Numbered from the stretch's first letter, positions 30,896 to 40,090 are shown. The stretch: DNA of 64,000 bases from Candidatus Thorarchaeota archaeon (GCA_004524445.1 SDNP01000005.1:1-64000); one strand, 5' to 3'. The notes: generated from the sequence alone by a model not told the origin. A program made the numbers and translations.

Positions 30896-32806
30896 CTAGT
30901 CCTGAGATTTCTTGCTACGGGATAAAGATTCAATCTCTTCACGGATTTTGCTGATATCTTCCAGCTCGCCTTTCATTTCGAAATCCTCAGCAATTGATTC
31001 GGCTTCTCGAATAGCATCTTCTAATCGCGATATTGCTTTCTTTCTCTCTTCCTCATTTGTCATCTGCTTAATGGATTCCTTCTTCTTGGGCACAAGATTG
31101 AGTATTCCAGCTATTGCATCTCGTGCTTCTTTTTCACTGCTCAAGACATCCACTTGGCTGGATTCAGAAGATTCGATGATTCTCGAAATTTGGTCCTTGA
31201 TTTCTTCGTACTTCATAATTGCTGTTGTAACAAGGGACTCGATTTCCTCTTCATCCCCAATTTCTTCCCTTTTTTTCTGAAGTATTTCTATCTGATTATT
31301 CAAGAAATCCAATCTATCTGATAGCCTGGTTCGCCGTCGTTCTATCCATCTCCACTCATTATCGATTCCCTCGATTAATGAATGAATTTCGCCTACTTTT
31401 TCTCTGTAAGCTTCAAGCTTTGATTTTGCAGATTCCAATGCGGATTCCAGTTCATCTGCGGTATAGGTCAGCTGGTAGCTCAGAATGTGCCCTTCTTGTG
31501 CATCTGATAGGACCCGACTTTCTTTAACGGCTCTTCCTACTCTGTTCCAAAGCTTCTCTACATATTCGTCTTCACGCTCCAGACGACCCTTTTTGTCCAG
31601 TTCGTTTGAAACATCTGAAACCTCTTCAGTTAGATGTTCCAATTCCACGATTTTTGCTTTTAATAGGGCCCTCCCCAGTCGCTCGTTTAGGTCGGTGGTC
31701 ATCCGTTCCCGTTCATCTGGAACCTCCAAGAGAGCATGGGTATTGTCGATTAACAACTGCAAAGCATTTTCGTAGTCAGAGACCGCTTCATGATACTCTT
31801 TCTCTTCAATATGTGCTTCCGCTTCCTTTTGTAATTCAATGGCATCTTCAAGGACATCGTAAGGTGATGTCTTGAGTATGGTAGCTCCCAATCTGCTGTT
31901 TTCAATGGAAGACAAATCGAGGGAGGTCTCACCTACCATCAGACGAATTACACTGATACCTCGATCAGTGGCAATAATCAGCAAATCCCTATCAACAAGG
32001 ACTCTGCGTACCCGAGCGTCTTCTACTTTTATTCGTCCCAAGCGTGACATGCTCTGAAGATCCCAAATGCTGATGAATGAAGAATCTGAAGCAGTAACCA
32101 AGAAGAGGCTATTGGCCCACATAGAGATGATTGTGTTATCATTCTTGCTTTCTAGCTTACCTACCTCTGTCCAATCAATGCGATCCCATAACTTTATTGA
32201 GCCGGTCTTGACCGCCGAGAAGATTAATTCTTCATTCCCAGTCAAAACAGCTCCCTTATCTTTGAGTTCCAATACTGCAAGCTCGACCGGTGCTTCTCCT
32301 TCCTTCATTTGGTATGCACGTGCATCGTCCTTGGCAGTAGAGATGCAAACGAGATTCTTGTCCGCCCAGAGACTAGTAACATCCGATTTGTAAAGTTGCC
32401 AACTAGAAGTCTCATGGCTGTCCTTTCTAATCGATACTAACCGGCCCTCTTTCGCACCTACATATAGATAGTCACCTCTCAGAGCGGAAGTAACAGCATC
32501 ATAAGCAAGTTCAAACCAACCTGTCATCCCCCACCCGCTCTTTTTCCAAACGTAAACCCGGTTCTCACAAGTGGCATAGACCTGCTCCTCATCAACGTGC
32601 ACGGCCAGGGGCGCAGAGTTGGTTTCTCCCAGCACTACTTCTTCTTCCCAGTCTTCTTTAGTCCAGGCGCGAATCTTCAAGTCAGAGCATGCAGCATACA
32701 AGTATTCTTCATCTTGATTCAAGTATGTAACGTCCACATCCAGTGAAGCTATTGACTCGAAGGTTAGCTGCAGCTCTTCAGCCTTCGTTGGTTGGGCATT
32801 TGACAT
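30896..32806 (-). CDS. WD40 beta-propeller + MIT/TPR-like helical bundle + C-terminal coiled coil
   Basis: WD-like blades in the first ~290 aa (ACSDLKIRAW, CENRVYVW, TGSIKLWD, SDSSFISIWD), then DAIELQKEAEAHIEEKEYHEAVSDYENALQLL, then about 250 aa of E/K/R-rich heptads. Confidence 0.8.
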   Translation of the reverse strand: MSNAQPTKAEELQLTFESIASLDVDVTYLNQDEEYLYAACSDLKIRAWTKEDWEEEVVLGETNSAPLAVHVDEEQVYATCENRVYVWKKSGWGMTGWFELAYDAVTSALRGDYLYVGAKEGRLVSIRKDSHETSSWQLYKSDVTSLWADKNLVCISTAKDDARAYQMKEGEAPVELAVLELKDKGAVLTGNEELIFSAVKTGSIKLWDRIDWTEVGKLESKNDNTIISMWANSLFLVTASDSSFISIWDLQSMSRLGRIKVEDARVRRVLVDRDLLIIATDRGISVIRLMVGETSLDLSSIENSRLGATILKTSPYDVLEDAIELQKEAEAHIEEKEYHEAVSDYENALQLLIDNTHALLEVPDERERMTTDLNERLGRALLKAKIVELEHLTEEVSDVSNELDKKGRLEREDEYVEKLWNRVGRAVKESRVLSDAQEGHILSYQLTYTADELESALESAKSKLEAYREKVGEIHSLIEGIDNEWRWIERRRTRLSDRLDFLNNQIEILQKKREEIGDEEEIESLVTTAIMKYEEIKDQISRIIESSESSQVDVLSSEKEARDAIAGILNLVPKKKESIKQMTNEEERKKAISRLEDAIREAESIAEDFEMKGELEDISKIREEIESLSRSKKSQD

Positions 32807-32958
32807 ATTCTTTCAACCGTAATTCGAATTGTGGCTACTCCTTTCGTCTATTGGAGGAATAGAAAAACCTGTTTAAAGTTACTGTGGTAAGCAAAAAATC
32901 GGCTTTTCATTTCATGAGGCATATTTTCGCCACTTAACTCCATCGAAACAGCAAGGGA

Positions 32959-33028
32959 TTATATAGAGGCAGAACAGACTTAAAACCAATGAAGACAAAC
33001 AAGATTTGTTTGACTAAAAATAAGGAGG
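32959..33028 (+). promoter_or_regulatory. Putative TATA box (TTATATA, 32959-32965) and Shine-Dalgarno (AGGAGG, 33023-33028) of the tubulin-like operon
   Basis: Located in the 229-nt divergent intergenic region. The SD lies 7 nt before the TTG at 33036. Confidence 0.5.
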
Positions 33029-33035
33029 AACTTCC

Positions 33036-35723
33036 TTGGATAGCAACAAATGGAGACGAGAGCTTGACCGCCTCTCCGAAATGAAAAGCATGCTTGTCAT
33101 TCTAAACCCTGCTCTTGAGGAGCAGACTAGCAGACAGCTCAGAGGACTTTATGATATCTTTGCAGAGTTGACTAGGCTGGAAAAAGAACTCAAGGATGCA
33201 GGATTTCTCAAAAAACGAAAGGTCAGTTCGCAAGTCGAGGACGCTGAAAAGAATTTAGAAGAAGAATTCATGCGAATCGTCAGAGATTTTGGTGAATTAC
33301 TGAGAATGGAACATCGCAGAACTTTATCAATCAGAGAAAAACTACAGTCCTACAAACCAGCTGAAACAAAGAAACTGCTGACCATGAGTATGCCGTCGAT
33401 TGGAGCGGGAGATCTAACAGATTTCCAGAACCTATATGATTTTGCAAAGAATTTCTCCGAATTATACAAAATGTTGCACAAGGACTTGGCAAGTCAGGCT
33501 AAGGAACTCTTAGACGAAAATAAGCGCATAGTTGAAACTTATGAAAGACACGTGACAATTGACCGTGGAGAAGTTTCCACAACAATCTCTACTGAAAATG
33601 TCGTCGGTCTTGCTATCGCTGAATTGATGATCCTCATGGAGAAGATTCAGAATGAAAGAGTCTATCTAGACGGAAGAAAGGACGAAGTCGGAAGGATGCT
33701 AAGTGCATCTCTTATGAGCGATATCGATTCACTTCAAGCATCGGTTGATACAGCAACCAAACTTGGACTCGATCTTCCAATGGATTTCTCCCAAAAGATC
33801 AGAGTACTAGCTCGAGATTCCTCTCAGGCGGAAAATCTTACATCCCTATTGAGTTTGGAAAGTCAGCTCCATTCTCTGCGGCTCCAGATGGCCAGTATTT
33901 TGCAGGATAGGATTATCAATAGCAAACACGAAGTCACCTCTAGTATCGTTGAGGGAGGGATTCCCACTAGCTCGGATGTAATACCTCAACCTCCTGCGGT
34001 TTCCACGGAGGATCAAGATGTTCCCTCATTATTATCATCCTATCAAGAGATGGTTGAGTGGGAGTCGCAAGTCAAGATTGCCCTCAAAGATAAGGTTGAG
34101 GAAACACTTGATGAAGTCGAGAAAGCTACTGACTATCCAGAAGATACAGGTATAGATGACATAGTTGCGGTTAGACAATTTGTTGCGGATTCTAAAGGCG
34201 AGCTTGAGAATGCGGGCATCGAAGACATGATCCGCATATATATCGATGCTGAAAAGCGCCAAGAAGCCTACAGAAAGAACCTGACAGAAGAAATCAGGGG
34301 CTATATGACGAGATTCAATGAACTTGCTACCTCTGCTGATAGAGTATTGGATTACGCTCAGCTTTCCAAGAAAGCTCCGAAGGTCGAGGACCTCGAGGGA
34401 GGAGTCATCTATTTGCACCAGTCACTTGTGAATCTAAGAAACACAGTTGAAAGCGGTGTCGCTACCTTTAGGGAAGCATGTGAACAGGAGATTGATGCAA
34501 TTATCCAGGATTTGCAGACCATCAAACCAGCATATGCGGAGATCTTCATGCCATTAATAGTCAAACTGGATGAAGGTAAAGCCGGCATTGAGAAGCTTGA
34601 TGAGTTTTCTGAAATCCGTAGTGAAATGCGAACTATCAAGGACTCGATTCTTGCAGATGCGAAAGATGCCCTTGAGAATTTGAGATACAGACTAGGAGTA
34701 AAAATCAGGCTGGCAGCTGCAAAACTCATGGGTGCGGGAGTCGAGATGCCTCCAGAAGTCCAAGAAGCTATCAGTGAGTTAAACAATATTGGAGTAGTAG
34801 CAGACACTGTATTCAGTCTTCCTGCAAAAGCCCGAAAGATGGTTGAGATATATGAAAAGAAAATCACTGGAAAGGTAATCGATAAACTCAATGAAGAGGT
34901 TGACGAACTAACAAAGTCTTTTGAACGCGCAGCACTAGTTGGTGTGGACTTGAATGAAGAGTTGGCAATCCTCTATAATCTACAGGAGAATCCTCCCGAT
35001 GAACTGGAGGATGCCGCAGATGCTTTCGATAAATTGTCAGCCCTTACAACATCTGAATCGATTCAGACAAAGATCATTGAAAGAGCAAATGAAGCACACA
35101 GGCAAATCAAGGATGCTGTTTCAATTTTCGAGGAACAGGGAATGCCCGACTTTGTAAAACGCCTGAAGGCCCTATTGGAGAAGGTCCCAAAGACCCTGGA
35201 GCAAGAATCAAAATATGTGACTGAAGCGCTAGATGTATGTCTCACCTTAGCTAACATCCAAGATGAAATGCTGGGTGTCATTAAGGACATTGCAAAGAAA
35301 GACAGAGAAGAATATGAAACGAAAATCAAGGAAGAAAGCAACTACTACTCAACAATTATGCGAGTATATAAGAAGCATCCAGAGGAGTTCAGCAAGCACA
35401 TTTTCCCAATGACCAAGATGTTGTCAACTGAAGAAAATCTATCTGAAGAAGGGAGACTCGATAAGGCACTCGAGTACTTCAATGAGTTAGAGAAAATGAA
35501 AGAAGACTGGATGGATAAAGCGTCTACCATGGACCAATGGCACAAGACGCTTCGAATGTACATGAGTGGATTCAGTGCATCAGCAAGTGCTGATGATAGA
35601 GCTAAGTTCATGGAAGATGCAAAGAGAAAAATCAAAGAAACATATAGTCGAGAGGACATAAGCACATATTTGACTTGGGCACTTGAAGAGATTGTTCAGA
35701 CAATGATGGAGAAAAGAGGATAG
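33036..35723 (+). CDS. 895-aa all-alpha helical-repeat/coiled-coil rod protein of unknown function
   Basis: No enzyme motif or TM segment. Amphipathic helices throughout, with recurring turn motifs (KLGLDLP, GAGVEMP, LVGVDL, EQGMP; LQSYKPA/LQTIKPA). Good SD. Confidence 0.85.
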   Translation: MDSNKWRRELDRLSEMKSMLVILNPALEEQTSRQLRGLYDIFAELTRLEKELKDAGFLKKRKVSSQVEDAEKNLEEEFMRIVRDFGELLRMEHRRTLSIREKLQSYKPAETKKLLTMSMPSIGAGDLTDFQNLYDFAKNFSELYKMLHKDLASQAKELLDENKRIVETYERHVTIDRGEVSTTISTENVVGLAIAELMILMEKIQNERVYLDGRKDEVGRMLSASLMSDIDSLQASVDTATKLGLDLPMDFSQKIRVLARDSSQAENLTSLLSLESQLHSLRLQMASILQDRIINSKHEVTSSIVEGGIPTSSDVIPQPPAVSTEDQDVPSLLSSYQEMVEWESQVKIALKDKVEETLDEVEKATDYPEDTGIDDIVAVRQFVADSKGELENAGIEDMIRIYIDAEKRQEAYRKNLTEEIRGYMTRFNELATSADRVLDYAQLSKKAPKVEDLEGGVIYLHQSLVNLRNTVESGVATFREACEQEIDAIIQDLQTIKPAYAEIFMPLIVKLDEGKAGIEKLDEFSEIRSEMRTIKDSILADAKDALENLRYRLGVKIRLAAAKLMGAGVEMPPEVQEAISELNNIGVVADTVFSLPAKARKMVEIYEKKITGKVIDKLNEEVDELTKSFERAALVGVDLNEELAILYNLQENPPDELEDAADAFDKLSALTTSESIQTKIIERANEAHRQIKDAVSIFEEQGMPDFVKRLKALLEKVPKTLEQESKYVTEALDVCLTLANIQDEMLGVIKDIAKKDREEYETKIKEESNYYSTIMRVYKKHPEEFSKHIFPMTKMLSTEENLSEEGRLDKALEYFNELEKMKEDWMDKASTMDQWHKTLRMYMSGFSASASADDRAKFMEDAKRKIKETYSREDISTYLTWALEEIVQTMMEKRG

Positions 35724-35740
35724 GAAAGGAGAATTAGCTG

Positions 35741-37141
35741 ATGGTATCAAACAGCGCAATCAGGCTTGATGATGAAGCAACGAAAGCTGCAGAGGTGTTC
35801 GCCATTGGAATTGGAGAGTGCGGTTCAAACATTGTGGGATCGTACCTGAAAACGAGTCGGGATAAGAAATTACCCTCAAGAGTACGAGGATATCTCTTGA
35901 TGAACACCGACAGGGCAGACCTAACTAAAGTTCGTTCCAAATATGGCATACCAAAAGAGCATACGCTACTCTATGGTGCCAGCGAAATAGGTGTTGGCGG
36001 AAGGTTCATGGAGGGCTATAATGCAATCCCAGAATCAAAGGACATTATATTCGACCAATTGAGTAATCTAGGATTCGAAGGAGTTTCAGGCTTCTCAATA
36101 TTCACGAGTCTTGGCGGAGGCACAGGCTGTGGAGGAACTCCCGCCCTCATTGAGGCCTTGAAACAGAGATTTCAGGAAGAAGAAGGCAGACGTATTTTCG
36201 TTTATGTGATAGGAGTCCTGCCGTTCGAAGGACAATCAAGCGAAGCTCTAAACTCAATCTGGGCGGTTAGCAAGCTCCTTCGGGCTCAGCTTCAAGAGCG
36301 AGGTGCAGATCTAACCATTCTACTAAGTAACCGCACCATGTTGAAGAGGATTCTTCAATCCAGAAAGACAGATAGTGTCGACTATCTGCAGCGAGAACTC
36401 GATGTGGATATAGCAAATATTGATTCTATAGAAACAATGGTTCCTTCAACCCTTGACGAATCGAGCGCCATACAAGAGAGGACAGAACAGGCCTTTGTCG
36501 AACTCGTTAATCCGCTTGCAGTTGATGTTATTGAAGCGATGCTATCCCCAGGAGTCTATGAGGCGAACAAAGACGTTTTTCCGACCACAGACCTTGCAGA
36601 TTATTCTAGAAAACTGGACCCAGTAGTAGTTCCAGCCCTCTATACTGACATCGGTCTTATTCCTGATGCGGGAAGCATGCGCAACCAGCTGAAAGCTATG
36701 ATAGATTATGCAGTGAAGGAAACCTCTTACGCTGATGTAGGCGAGGAACCGAATGCGGAGAGCGTTTACTATGTGCTCAGTGGTTCCAGACATATCAGCA
36801 AAGCTGAGTACGGTATGCACTTGAAGGAGGCACTGGATAAATTCATAGCTCCTGGCGCAGCAATTACTCCCTGTTACGTTCAATACCATGAAGAGAACCC
36901 ACCCACAAATCTTCTACTGCTACTGGGCCTACCCAAAATCCCAGAACTAGTACAAATAATCAATGAAGCGACACAATTGGTAAATCTCCATAGTGGAGCT
37001 TCACCTCTGAAACAGAGCTGGTTCCAGAGGTCCAAGGGAACAACAAGAAAAGAGCTGGTGAATGCAATAGCGGACTTTCGAGAGCTTTTCAGTTACTACA
37101 TGACACCAGGTTCTGGAGATAATCTCGAGCAGGGTGTGTAA
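35741..37141 (+). CDS. Divergent tubulin/FtsZ-superfamily GTPase
   Basis: T1 IGIGECGSNI, T2 MNTD, T3 GVGG, T4 GFSIFTSLGGGTGCG, T5 GVLPF, ALNS, T6 LSN, T7 TTDLADY. AGGAG SD upstream. Confidence 0.93.
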   Translation: MVSNSAIRLDDEATKAAEVFAIGIGECGSNIVGSYLKTSRDKKLPSRVRGYLLMNTDRADLTKVRSKYGIPKEHTLLYGASEIGVGGRFMEGYNAIPESKDIIFDQLSNLGFEGVSGFSIFTSLGGGTGCGGTPALIEALKQRFQEEEGRRIFVYVIGVLPFEGQSSEALNSIWAVSKLLRAQLQERGADLTILLSNRTMLKRILQSRKTDSVDYLQRELDVDIANIDSIETMVPSTLDESSAIQERTEQAFVELVNPLAVDVIEAMLSPGVYEANKDVFPTTDLADYSRKLDPVVVPALYTDIGLIPDAGSMRNQLKAMIDYAVKETSYADVGEEPNAESVYYVLSGSRHISKAEYGMHLKEALDKFIAPGAAITPCYVQYHEENPPTNLLLLLGLPKIPELVQIINEATQLVNLHSGASPLKQSWFQRSKGTTRKELVNAIADFRELFSYYMTPGSGDNLEQGV

Positions 37142-38195
37142 ACGAGTGGGCGAGACTTATCAGCTAGAGGACCTTATTGATAGGCTATTGCTGATTGTCA
37201 CACTGAACTCTACATTAGTTCATTTTCTGATTAGCTCCCAAGTGGAGGGACATTTCGACCCAGATAGAGTTGACTCTCTTACACAGGGTCTCATCAAGAC
37301 CAGGTCATGGATGGAGGAGGCAACTAAGATGGAGGGAGTTCCTTCCTCGACATCCAATATTATGGCACTAATAGTGAAACGCCTGTCTCAAATAGAAAAT
37401 CTACTCCCGAGACTCTCAGAGAAGGCGAAGCAGTTAGAGGCTGCCGAAACTCCCGCCCAGGAAATACTATCGCTTCTTGATGATTCATCGAAATTAGCGG
37501 TAAAAATGGTACAGGAAGATGAAGATGGACAACAGGTTTCACTCGTTAAATCAGAAGAGGAGATACCTCCAGAACCCTATCGGAGAGTAGACGTGGAAGA
37601 TGACGAATTTGGACTGATTGGCCAAACTGAGCGCCTGATTAAGCAGTATTCCAAGCGATGCCATGTATTATTGCCAACCTTTTGGCTAGAAGTAATCAGA
37701 CAGATCCACAAATATCGCTCTGAGTCCCCCTACATTGGCGATGCCATAGAAACCCCAAGCAAAGTGATTGCCAGAATCGTTCGCGGGCTACTGACAGAAG
37801 CCCCAGGAGCAAGACTATTGCAGGACCTGTCGAAACAACGGTCACAAGAGAATATTTTGAATGCGACCGAGATGGAGAGGATAGAGCGGGCTGTTGCAAG
37901 ATACTTCCATGGACTCGAGGGAATCCTCAGCAACAAGGAGCCAAATGTTACCGAGAAAATAAACGAGGCACATTCGGCCTTGGATGGATTCGGTTGGGGA
38001 GGGCCAGAACTTGAAAAGCGCCTTATTAAACGAATTCACCAGCGGTGTGAAGAGGCGCTTGATAACGCAGAGTCAGTTACAGATGAATCTAGACAGGTTG
38101 TCTATGCAGAAATAACAAAGATGCTCTGCAAGCTGCAACATGCAATACTTGCAGAGCCTAGGCTACGGGAAATACTTGCTCTGATGAAACCATAA
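37134..38195 (+). CDS. All-alpha hypothetical protein coupled to the tubulin-like gene
   Basis: Overlaps or abuts the GTPase stop (GTG at 37134 or 37146). Helical N-domain, acidic Pro-containing linker (EEEIPPEPYRRVDVEDDE), helical C-domain. Confidence 0.8.
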   Translation: MCKRVGETYQLEDLIDRLLLIVTLNSTLVHFLISSQVEGHFDPDRVDSLTQGLIKTRSWMEEATKMEGVPSSTSNIMALIVKRLSQIENLLPRLSEKAKQLEAAETPAQEILSLLDDSSKLAVKMVQEDEDGQQVSLVKSEEEIPPEPYRRVDVEDDEFGLIGQTERLIKQYSKRCHVLLPTFWLEVIRQIHKYRSESPYIGDAIETPSKVIARIVRGLLTEAPGARLLQDLSKQRSQENILNATEMERIERAVARYFHGLEGILSNKEPNVTEKINEAHSALDGFGWGGPELEKRLIKRIHQRCEEALDNAESVTDESRQVVYAEITKMLCKLQHAILAEPRLREILALMKP

Positions 38196-38671: not shown

Positions 38672-40090
38672 ATGTCCACGCTAGATGTAATGTTGAACCC
38701 GAAAGCCGCTGCTGTAGTCGGAGTATCCACAACTAATCCGTTCTCGCCAGGCAATGTAATATTCCGAAAACTGCGCTTCGAAAATCAACTCGATGCATTT
38801 CCTATCAACCCGAAGGGTGGTCTTGTAGAGGGGCAAAAGGTCTACAAGTCCATTTCTGAAGCGCCCGAAGGCATTGATCTTGTTGTAATCTCCGTGGCAG
38901 CCAAATATGTACCGAGTGTTATGAAGGAGTGCGCTGAGCGCGGAATCAAAGCAGTTATTGTTGTATCAGGGGGTTTTAGCGAAACTGGTGAAGCAGGCGA
39001 GAACTTACAAAACGAAATTGTGGAAATTGCAAATAGCAACGATATGACTATGGTCGGTCCCAACTGCATTGGTGTTTTTGTGCCGCGAGTCCTTGATACC
39101 TTCTTCCTCCCATCTGAGCGTGTTGCTAGACCACGAGAGGGAAACGTTGCAATAATTTCACAGAGTGGAGGCTGGCTAGTGGAGAGGTTAGAAGAATACG
39201 CAGCTAGAGACCTTGGAATTGCAGCCGCGATATCTATAGGTAACGCGGCACAAACCAGAGTAGATGATTTCGTAGAATACTTCGGCAATCGAGATGACAT
39301 CAGCGTTATTGTAGCGTATATTGAGGGATTCCCAGAAGGAGAGGGAAGAGATTTTGTTGAATCAGCCTCTAGTGTCACAGTAAACAAACCGTTGATAGTG
39401 CTGAAGGGTGGAAAATCTGAAGCAGGACACCGTGCAACACAAAGCCACACATCCTCGTTGGCTGGTAGCGCAGAAATTACTTCTGCCGCCTTCAAGCAAT
39501 ATGGAATTCTTGAAGCGATTGATGAGGACGAAGTTATGGCGTATTCTAAGGCTTTCTCATTCAAACTCCAGCAGATGCAGGGTTCAAGAATTGGCTGTCT
39601 AACAGTTTCTGGAGGACATGGTGTTATTGCAGTAGATGAGGGGGACCATTACGGGCTGGAATTTCCACAATTCGACAAATCGCAGCGGGATGCCATGCGA
39701 GAAGTGATGACACCTTCATATCGGGATATCTCTTCATTCAGAAATCCCTGCGATTTGACAGGCAGCGCATCTGACATTGATTATGAGCGAGTTCTTGACG
39801 TCATGTTGAAATTTGATAATATTGATTCAGCCCTGCTCCTGTTGCTCCCTTATGCTCCAGGGATATCACTACAAATCGGAGCTCGCGTGGCTAATGTCGC
39901 CAAGAGGTACCAGAAAACGGTTGTTTCGTATGTTCCCTACCTTGGGAAGTACGAAGTCATCATAAGAGGCTTTGAGCTAAACGGTATTCCAGTTGGGGAT
40001 ACCATCGAAGAAGCGGTTCAGATGCTGAATGGTATCCGGAAGAGATCCGAGTTTCTTCAGCGCATGGGAAAGCTACGCGCTGAGAAATAA
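38672..40090 (+). CDS. acdA: Acetate--CoA ligase (ADP-forming) alpha-subunit family
   Basis: CoA-binding domain (PINPKG, IDLVVI, SGGFSE, GPNCIG), SQSGG, SIGN, YIEG, phospho-His SHTSSLAG, NPCDLTG. Confidence 0.9.
   Translation: MSTLDVMLNPKAAAVVGVSTTNPFSPGNVIFRKLRFENQLDAFPINPKGGLVEGQKVYKSISEAPEGIDLVVISVAAKYVPSVMKECAERGIKAVIVVSGGFSETGEAGENLQNEIVEIANSNDMTMVGPNCIGVFVPRVLDTFFLPSERVARPREGNVAIISQSGGWLVERLEEYAARDLGIAAAISIGNAAQTRVDDFVEYFGNRDDISVIVAYIEGFPEGEGRDFVESASSVTVNKPLIVLKGGKSEAGHRATQSHTSSLAGSAEITSAAFKQYGILEAIDEDEVMAYSKAFSFKLQQMQGSRIGCLTVSGGHGVIAVDEGDHYGLEFPQFDKSQRDAMREVMTPSYRDISSFRNPCDLTGSASDIDYERVLDVMLKFDNIDSALLLLLPYAPGISLQIGARVANVAKRYQKTVVSYVPYLGKYEVIIRGFELNGIPVGDTIEEAVQMLNGIRKRSEFLQRMGKLRAEK

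Follow-up and report, generated by a model that had tools for sequence, protein, structure and literature searches.

A conserved rod–GTPase–small protein operon of Asgard archaea as a candidate cytoskeletal filament system built on Asg.Tub

The stretch of DNA analyzed here, in the following called the window, comprises 64,000 nucleotides (nt) from a Candidatus Thorarchaeota archaeon (GCA_004524445.1, SDNP01000005.1:1-64000), whose 2.79-Mb assembly consists of 64 contigs and is 90% complete. Between positions 33036 and 38195 it carries three closely spaced genes for a long helical rod protein, a GTPase of the tubulin/FtsZ superfamily and a small helical protein. We propose with moderate confidence that this locus is the Thorarchaeote copy of a pan-Asgard operon coding for a dedicated cytoskeletal filament system outside of cell division. 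Judged by its sequence, the GTPase is a member of Asg.Tub, a group of Asgard paralogues defined by Santana-Molina, del Saz-Navarro & Devos (2023, Front Microbiol 13:1100249; PMC9871819). The locus had been called undescribed in a preliminary description made from the DNA alone, which does not hold for its GTPase: the clade was named in 2023, and its neighbors were recorded there as "unknown and unrelated genes" with coiled coils (PMC9871819). Our analysis shares the protein family and the remark on coiled-coil neighbors with that account (PMC9871819) and exceeds it in the fixed gene triad, the strictly matching phyletic patterns in about 115 of 301 genomes, the co-duplication of GTPase and rod, the predicted structures of both partners and the extra neighbors specific to the Thorarchaeote lineage. 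No biochemical, cell-biological or other functional study of Asg.Tub was found in the literature searched. The triad consists of the following open reading frames (ORFs).

33036-35723, plus strand: rod gene (P0002), gene 1 of the triad; ORF of 895 aa with a TTG start
35741-37141, plus strand: GTPase gene (P0003), gene 2 of the triad; ORF of 466 aa, Asg.Tub clade
37134-38195, plus strand: gene of the small helical partner (P0004), gene 3 of the triad; ORF of 353 aa with a GTG start, or 349 aa from an alternative GTG

Conservation of the triad in Asgard archaea

The ORFs, the 17-nt gap between the rod and GTPase genes, the abutting or overlapping third gene and a divergent spacer of 229 nt upstream had all been listed in the preliminary description and were found again at the same positions. 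The 17-nt gap contains an AGGAG-type ribosome-binding site about 8 nt ahead of the ATG of the GTPase gene. As called, the ORF of the small partner overlaps the GTPase gene by 8 nt. Because the alignment of homologues and the database record (349 aa) favor the GTG at 37146, translation probably starts there, 4 nt past the stop codon of the GTPase gene.

To assess the conservation of the locus, 301 Asgard genomes from 30 families were searched for the GTPase and, with profiles, for the small partner and the rod, and 20 loci from nine families were fetched and read by tblastn, ORF maps and family hidden Markov models. In 18 of the 20 loci, which represent nine families, rod, GTPase and small protein follow each other in this order on a single strand, with rods of 873–1,185 aa, GTPases of 440–499 aa and small proteins of 293–380 aa, separated by intergenic gaps of −8 to 67 nt except for a single gap of 376 nt. 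The two remaining loci are second copies in one family (f22) and consist of rod and GTPase only, so that a rod homologue lies directly upstream of the GTPase gene in all 20 loci. Clustering of all ORFs in these loci revealed no other gene family that recurs across lineages. The arrangement is therefore not due to chance. Synteny across Asgard genomes had been set beforehand as a test of the proposed locus, and it was borne out for the rod, the GTPase and the small gene; a WD40 gene and a TPR gene upstream of the triad, which had been described along with it, proved to accompany it only within the Thorarchaeote family.

The three genes also share their distribution. Apart from the genome of the window itself, 114 genomes were positive for the GTPase (115 of 301 with it), 113 for the small partner and 118 for the rod, with the following counts in three of the families.

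f1: GTPase in 66 of 76 genomes, small partner in 65 of 76, rod in 67 of 76
f12: GTPase in 15 of 19 genomes, small partner in 16 of 19, rod in 16 of 19
f22: GTPase in 19 of 21 genomes, small partner in 19 of 21, rod in 21 of 21

All three genes were also present in f2, f6, f8, f15, f16 and f29, which makes the nine positive families identical for each of them, and none of the three was detected in the other 21 of the 30 Asgard families sampled, including families with 0 of 28 and 0 of 68 positive genomes. The mismatches between the three genes at the level of single genomes reflect fragmented assemblies.

Genomes of family f22 contain two pairs of GTPase and rod genes and one small partner. FastTree trees of GTPase and rod showed the same three groupings, and both place the branch of the second pair before f22 and f29 separate. 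Because both trees give the same groupings, the two genes must have duplicated and diverged as a unit. The first f22 copies closely resemble the Heimdallarchaeia B3-JM-08 member of the published Asg.Tub clade. The second pairs (L012:9420-14180 and L017:5860-10631) are about 56% identical to the first pairs in the GTPase and about 22% in the rod; they are flanked by a co-oriented gene of 311 aa upstream and a convergent gene of 740 aa downstream, and no small partner was found within 9 kb.

Over distances where the GTPases are 44–62% identical, the rods and small partners retain only 17–28% identity. A slowly evolving polymer core combined with fast-evolving accessory proteins would be the pattern expected of a filament system. 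Relative to the window copy, the GTPases of five other families are 44–62% identical, compared to 46–65% for the FtsZ1-type and 45–56% for the FtsZ2-type proteins of the same genomes, which means that Asg.Tub is conserved about as strongly as FtsZ1 and FtsZ2.

Properties of the GTPase and its two helical partners

The GTPase matched PF00091 over residues 18–202 with 72.1 bits (cut-off 33), and its homologues carry the same domain. Among 16 GTPase sequences from nine families, which are 43–84% identical, the T1 loop (GxGECGxN) and the GGGTGCG motif were invariant, the latter with Cys at the Ser/Thr position of the GGGTG(S/T)G signature. The same applies to D284 and D287 within a P-T-T-D-L-A-D stretch, which we assign to the T7 loop by motif position (FtsZ N-x-D-x-x-D) and not from a structure. 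Because these motifs are invariant, nucleotide binding and polymerization-coupled hydrolysis are probably intact.

A search of the PDB with the GTPase family profile retrieved CetZ2 (4b46) at an E-value of 1e-13, the Methanosaeta CetZ-like protein 3zid at 2e-8 and CetZ1 (4b45) at 9e-8, followed by beta-tubulin (2e-7), OdinTubulin (1.5e-6), gamma-tubulin (1e-5) and AtubA (4e-5). All of these matches are confined to the N-terminal domain, those to tubulins (E-values of 2e-7 to 5e-5) covering profile positions of about 70–200, and there was no FtsZ chain among the best 60. The C-terminal 260 or so residues matched none of the Pfam C-terminal domains CetZ_C, FtsZ_C, Tubulin_C and TubZ-like_C.

Three known classes were compared with Asg.Tub. 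A division FtsZ is ruled out by a score of 29.7 bits against the NCBIfam FtsZ equivalog TIGR00065, compared to a cut-off of 295.2, and by the missing FtsZ_C; two canonical FtsZ genes (165 and 148 bits) lie on other contigs of the source genome. A tubulin proper is ruled out by the purely N-terminal similarity and by the lack of any match to the tubulin C-terminal domain PF03953. CetZ proteins are the closest solved relatives (4b45, 4b46 and 3zid, E-values of 1e-13 to 9e-8) and are, like Asg.Tub, non-division paralogues beside FtsZ1 and FtsZ2. However, the similarity of Asg.Tub to CetZ ends with the N-terminal GTPase domain, and CetZ_C (PF21011) was matched neither by the whole protein at E-values up to 1 nor by residues 205–466 and three relatives at E-values up to 10, whereas true CetZs recovered by the same profile match PF21011 at 1e-26 to 1e-54. 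In addition, an extra segment of about 45 residues that follows the T6 region and precedes H7 distinguishes Asg.Tub from CetZ, and CetZ genes are without such conserved partner genes (PMC9871819). Among the language-model neighbors of the GTPase, CetZ ranked at the top with 0.94, and TubZ- and PhuZ-type clusters reached 0.91–0.93.

The additional segment is family-specific, acidic and variable in length. In the window, it is encoded at 36340-36480 (residues ~205–248), flanked by the T6 region (LLSNRTML) on one side and the helix FVELVNPL (H7) on the other, with the invariant residues R203, D223 and E249 at or near its ends.

As to its phylogenetic position, the placement of Asg.Tub between CetZ and tubulins was reported to be unstable and its C-terminus to be without matches (PMC9871819). 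The published C-terminal alignment comprises two sequences from Thorarchaeales and two from Heimdallarchaeia (PMC9871819), and it agrees throughout with the window GTPase and with our alignment of 16 sequences. The published member OLS26264.1 was recovered in our search (P0111; 52% identical over 96% of the query). All named matches of the GTPase came from Asgard archaea, with identities of 85–89% in Thorarchaeota, about 60% in "Promethearchaeota" and 50–56% in Hodarchaeales/Heimdallarchaeota. Among 1.84 billion representative proteins searched, two full-length clusters fell into the Asg.Tub family, and the next full-length proteins followed at E-values of 4e-44 and then 5e-19, with bona fide CetZs at about 1e-15. 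Asg.Tub thus occurs in Asgard archaea only and stands apart from the other subfamilies.

The nearest outgroup protein, P0246 (457 aa, E-value of 4e-44 to the family profile), is encoded at L024:6001-8149 on a Logan contig of SRR7811641. Two DHODH-type genes immediately precede its gene. Genes for SMC and ScpA lie about 2.8 kb upstream on the same strand, separated from it by four genes; no rod gene was found at this locus. The gene of a 262-aa protein overlaps the end of the P0246 gene. This protein possesses a transmembrane helix at its N-terminus and, with 5 bits, faintly resembles the small partner in its "F-x-W-G...L-E-x-R-I" motif. A second outgroup GTPase occurs on a contig holding that gene alone.

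The rod matched no Pfam, NCBIfam or PADLOC family. Its AlphaFold2 model (predicted local distance difference test score, pLDDT, of 86.7; predicted template-modelling score, pTM, of 0.39) contains 33 helices, many of them 30–45 residues long, and no strand, which suggests an elongated helical array of uncertain overall path. Aligning the rod profile with itself by hhalign gave matches off the diagonal, displaced by about 155, 235 and 325 residues and with E-values down to 2e-10; these are compatible with internal repeats, and a coiled-coil composition could inflate them. The best-conserved part of the protein is its last ~130 residues.

The small partner is modelled as a three-helix bundle (residues 1–105), a disordered linker (106–144) and a C-terminal helical domain (~150–353, pLDDT above 90) holding most of the invariant residues. 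Its homologues with a source name are all "hypothetical proteins" of Asgard archaea. Like the rod, it gave nothing at E ≤ 0.001 in Foldseek searches against the PDB, and it matched no NCBIfam or PADLOC family; the rod also had no specific PDB match. A shape search of the ESM Atlas with the small partner reached template-modelling scores of at most 0.34, and a feature search of the Atlas yielded no usable match. For both partners, VIA-align returned generic helical bundles only, with lists filled by one bundle, so that these searches hardly covered most of the rod or the C-terminal domain of the small partner, and profile searches against PDB sequences retrieved only apolipoprotein or designed helical proteins at E ≥ 1e-3. 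Pfam searches over every member of both partner alignments found no family common to more than two members. The small partner and the rod are unrelated by hhalign (probability 1.5%). Both partners are therefore all-helical, Asgard-only proteins without a matching Pfam family or solved fold. A gamma-tubulin-complex (GCP) or tubulin-cofactor-like identity of the partners was considered and gained no support in any search, and no link to eukaryotic microtubule-associated proteins was found. The predicted complex of GTPase and small partner scored 0.01 compared to a mark of 0.32, a value that counts neither for nor against a contact.

Proposed mode of action and alternative functions

We infer polymerization, partner binding and the cellular role of the Asg.Tub system from sequence data and envisage it as follows. 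Asg.Tub would bind GTP and polymerize head-to-tail, with its T7 aspartates completing the GTPase site of the next subunit, as suggested by the invariant residues. Synteny, co-duplication and matching trees suggest that each GTPase paralogue pairs with its own rod of 900–1,190 residues, which may lie along or between the filaments as a scaffold, bundler or ruler, probably attached via its conserved C-terminal 130 residues. The C-terminal domain of the small partner may bind to the GTPase or the rod, and its three-helix bundle on the flexible linker could either couple assembly to something else or regulate it. Thorarchaeia would have gained a WD40/TPR-MIT-like/coiled-coil protein and a TPR protein as lineage-specific adaptors, and division would be left to FtsZ1 and FtsZ2, both of which are encoded in the genome.

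Several points weigh against this proposal. The triad was not found in 21 of the 30 Asgard families sampled and is therefore not a universal Asgard feature. Moreover, triad members are 4–10 kb apart in three genomes, with ~8 kb between GTPase and small partner at G037:C69:8544-21918 and 4–10 kb between rod and GTPase at G119:C96:89778-98894 and G184:C230:11419-27166, where the extra DNA may represent insertions, and the second GTPase–rod pair of f22 has no small partner next to it. The partners show no recognizable tubulin- or FtsZ-binding motif, membrane anchor or known fold, which makes the roles assigned to them guesses, and the partner that a conserved operon ties to a protein may be its chaperone, regulator or cargo and not a structural one. 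Filament formation and partner contacts are predictions from sequence. As to expression, contigs from four metatranscriptome runs of one salt-lake study were 95–99% identical to parts of all three triad genes. Since these are assembled contigs of a single study, they cannot prove transcription or co-transcription and amount to a weak hint of triad expression; none of them spans the boundary between two genes by 31 nt on each side, parts of the stretch are without cover, and they support neither co-transcription nor a silence of the divergent WD40 gene.

Spectrin-like or coiled-coil associated proteins that bundle, anchor or regulate a polymer are familiar from FtsZ, with EzrA, ZapA/ZapB and SepF as examples, EzrA consisting of repeated triple-helical bundles. 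The predicted rod and the N-terminus of the small partner may resemble EzrA in their general helical-bundle shape, which we regard as a possible functional analogy only: no search gave a sequence or fold match to EzrA, the Zap proteins or SepF, there is no transmembrane anchor, and, in contrast to these proteins, the Asg.Tub partners share one operon with their GTPase and are restricted to Asgard archaea. A tubulin-side GTPase beside the gene of a helical (TPR or coiled-coil) stabilizing or putative partner also occurs in the BtubA/BtubB/BtubC operon of Prosthecobacter and at the OdinTubulin locus (PMC9871819). However, those GTPases are true tubulins with Tubulin_C, unlike Asg.Tub, and BtubC is a TPR protein. 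Furthermore, the neighbors of the Odin gene were reported to be unique to one genome (PMC9871819), whereas the triad is kept over nine families.

The filament might also act at a membrane, as a remodelling or vesicle/protrusion system in which the partners, including the propeller/MIT-like protein in Thorarchaeia, would link the GTPase polymer to the membrane or to ESCRT-III. We consider this special case of the proposed filament system rather unlikely. Action at the membrane has been proposed for FtsZl families and for the haloarchaeal "Halo_adaptin" CetZ-like protein, which belongs to an ESCRT-type system and is encoded alongside "adaptin-like" WD40/PQQ-propeller proteins (Makarova et al. 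2024, mBio, PMC10936438). The Thorarchaeote version of the locus resembles this combination of a CetZ-like GTPase with beta-propeller proteins, as its divergent neighbor joins a propeller to a TPR/MIT-like three-helix unit, and a transmembrane helix is present in the protein following the GTPase at the nearest outgroup locus. In contrast to the haloarchaeal system, the window locus contains no gene for a Vps4, ESCRT-III, Ig-like or membrane protein, and neither ESCRT-III nor Vps4 genes occur in the conserved neighborhood. The propeller gene is an addition of one family, and the MIT assignment stays below threshold. In agreement with what had been noted beforehand, none of the four window proteins, the WD40 protein included, has a transmembrane segment (19-residue hydropathy windows; maximum 1.61, from a polar-interrupted helix), nor do they possess an obvious amphipathic membrane-targeting helix.

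If the helical partners instead fold, assemble or sequester the GTPase, similar to tubulin cofactors or stathmin-type regulators, they would control the pool of polymerizable subunits. Strict co-occurrence and operon coupling fit a stoichiometric helper equally well, the GTPase evolves much more slowly than its partners, and a three-helix bundle, the shape also known from tubulin cofactor A, forms the beginning of the small partner. We nevertheless regard this function as unlikely: a repetitive rod of 900–1,190 residues would be unusual for a chaperone, its co-duplication with the GTPase points to a specific structural pairing, and neither sequence nor fold searches indicated any similarity to tubulin cofactors.

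A DNA-segregation or mobile-element system of the TubZRC/PhuZ type, with the neighbors serving as adaptors, might be suggested by the TubZ- and PhuZ-type clusters among the language-model neighbors and by the location of the outgroup GTPase gene ~2.8 kb downstream of SMC and ScpA genes, but appears very improbable. Plasmid-partition genes and a canonical ftsZ context had been described as missing, and none was detected in the flanks. Unlike in TubZRC systems, there is no adjacent TubR-like DNA-binding adaptor, and no DNA-binding domain was found in the neighbors; neither flank contains an array of iterons or centromere-like repeats, and the repeats of 10–13 nt that do occur there have two copies and are due to chance. 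The flanks consist of chromosomal housekeeping genes of metabolism that differ between lineages, the family trees of GTPase and rod match, and there was no match to TubZ_C or PADLOC.

That the three genes are unrelated neighbors brought together by chance or by close kinship of the genomes is hardly credible, even though 76 of the 300 genomes other than that of the window come from one family, since their order is kept at GTPase identities of 43–62% and partner identities of 17–28% with every other flanking gene being different, their presence and absence follow the same pattern over 30 families, and GTPase and rod were co-duplicated.

Asgard archaea are the closest archaeal relatives of eukaryotes, and work on their cytoskeleton has so far dealt with actin, ESCRT, FtsZ1/2 and the recently found AtubAB/Odin tubulins. 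Asg.Tub represents a third line of the tubulin superfamily, present in Thorarchaeia and Heimdallarchaeia-type lineages and duplicated in one family, and its distribution is shared by two obligate partners that cannot be assigned to known folds. This defines a concrete set of three proteins for reconstitution and structure determination. Should they assemble as proposed for the filament system, the result would be a prokaryotic filament of a new type that brings its own associated proteins; otherwise, a conserved gene module exclusive to Asgard archaea would still have been cleanly defined. In a more far-reaching version, which we regard as speculative and rather doubtful, the triad would be a complete and ancient Asgard cytomotive system, with rod and small partner as the first dedicated filament-associated proteins of a tubulin-side polymer predating eukaryotes, and would build an intracellular or cortical scaffold for cell shape, protrusions or compartment organization, including in the Heimdallarchaeia with the duplication. 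If true, the archaeal ancestors of eukaryotes would have possessed the logic of a tubulin plus dedicated associated proteins separately from the AtubAB/Odin microtubule line.

Thorarchaeote neighbors and flanks of the locus

The following features border the triad in the window.

32807-33035, no strand: divergent intergenic region, 229 nt between the WD40 and rod genes
30896-32806, minus strand: WD40 gene (P0001), divergent neighbor; ORF of 636 aa
30069-30851, plus strand: TPR gene, 260 aa; matches to TPR families with E-values down to 4e-18; convergent with the WD40 gene

The 229-nt spacer likely carries the promoters of both the triad operon and the WD40 gene. Read by eye, AT-rich TATA-like stretches may be present at 32959-32966 and 32980-32986, and the ribosome-binding site of the rod gene (GGAGG) is located at 33024-33028 inside the spacer. 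A scan with bacterial promoter and terminator models, which do not apply to archaea, gave counts equal to the shuffled level. In three of the metatranscriptome runs, the contigs of the 95–99% identical relative begin at 33024, 33031 and 33047. Lying within 25 nt of the ribosome-binding site and TTG of the rod gene, these starts give a weak hint that a transcript might begin here and have a very short leader, although assembled contigs cannot establish this.

The WD40 protein consists of an N-terminal WD40-type beta-propeller, a TPR/MIT-like helical unit (~318–380) and a coiled-coil tail. More than ten independent propeller models matched residues 9–280 with E-values of 5e-9 to 1e-3, each below its family-specific cut-off; the same models match the homologues, some of which bear the name WD40 repeat protein at their source. 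Propeller and coiled-coil tail thus agree with the initial annotation of the gene as WD40 plus MIT-like plus coiled coil, whose middle part fared less well: MIT (PF04212) scored 16.9 bits with the whole protein and 20.6 bits with residues 300–400, compared to a cut-off of 30. Across the family, TPR_2 matched this region in 13 and MIT in 4 of 15 members, all below the cut-offs, and the family profile reached the MIT chains of Vps4 with E-values of only 0.2–0.6, though over the full domain length. Residues 300–400 seem to behave as a TPR-like unit, for which "MIT-like" is a possible description.

Both neighbors are Thorarchaeote-family accessories outside the pan-Asgard module. Of 40 other genomes searched in this family, 31 contained the WD40 gene (14 of 16 genera), nearly always on the contig of the GTPase gene, 2.5–5 kb away and on the opposite, divergent strand, and NCBI locus tags of several records confirm its adjacency to the triad. 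It was not found in the genera g4 and g10, which retain the triad, and was absent beside all non-Thorarchaeote loci examined. The TPR gene, whose convergent orientation to the WD40 gene is as originally reported, has homologues beside the locus in the three Thorarchaeote loci examined (L004, L005 and L006). At L005:5668-6276, in a genus without the WD40 gene, the homologue (42% identical) immediately precedes the rod gene and shares its strand. Because it is kept there, the TPR gene may be the more persistent Thorarchaeote-specific companion of the two.

The other flanking genes are metabolic, coding for a molybdopterin-oxidoreductase-like protein, a CoA ligase, an FMN dehydrogenase and an amino-acid kinase. 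The CoA-ligase-type gene (472 aa, 38672-40090) is retained downstream of the triad in three Thorarchaeote loci and one f16 locus (35% identical), which probably reflects local synteny and not a functional link.

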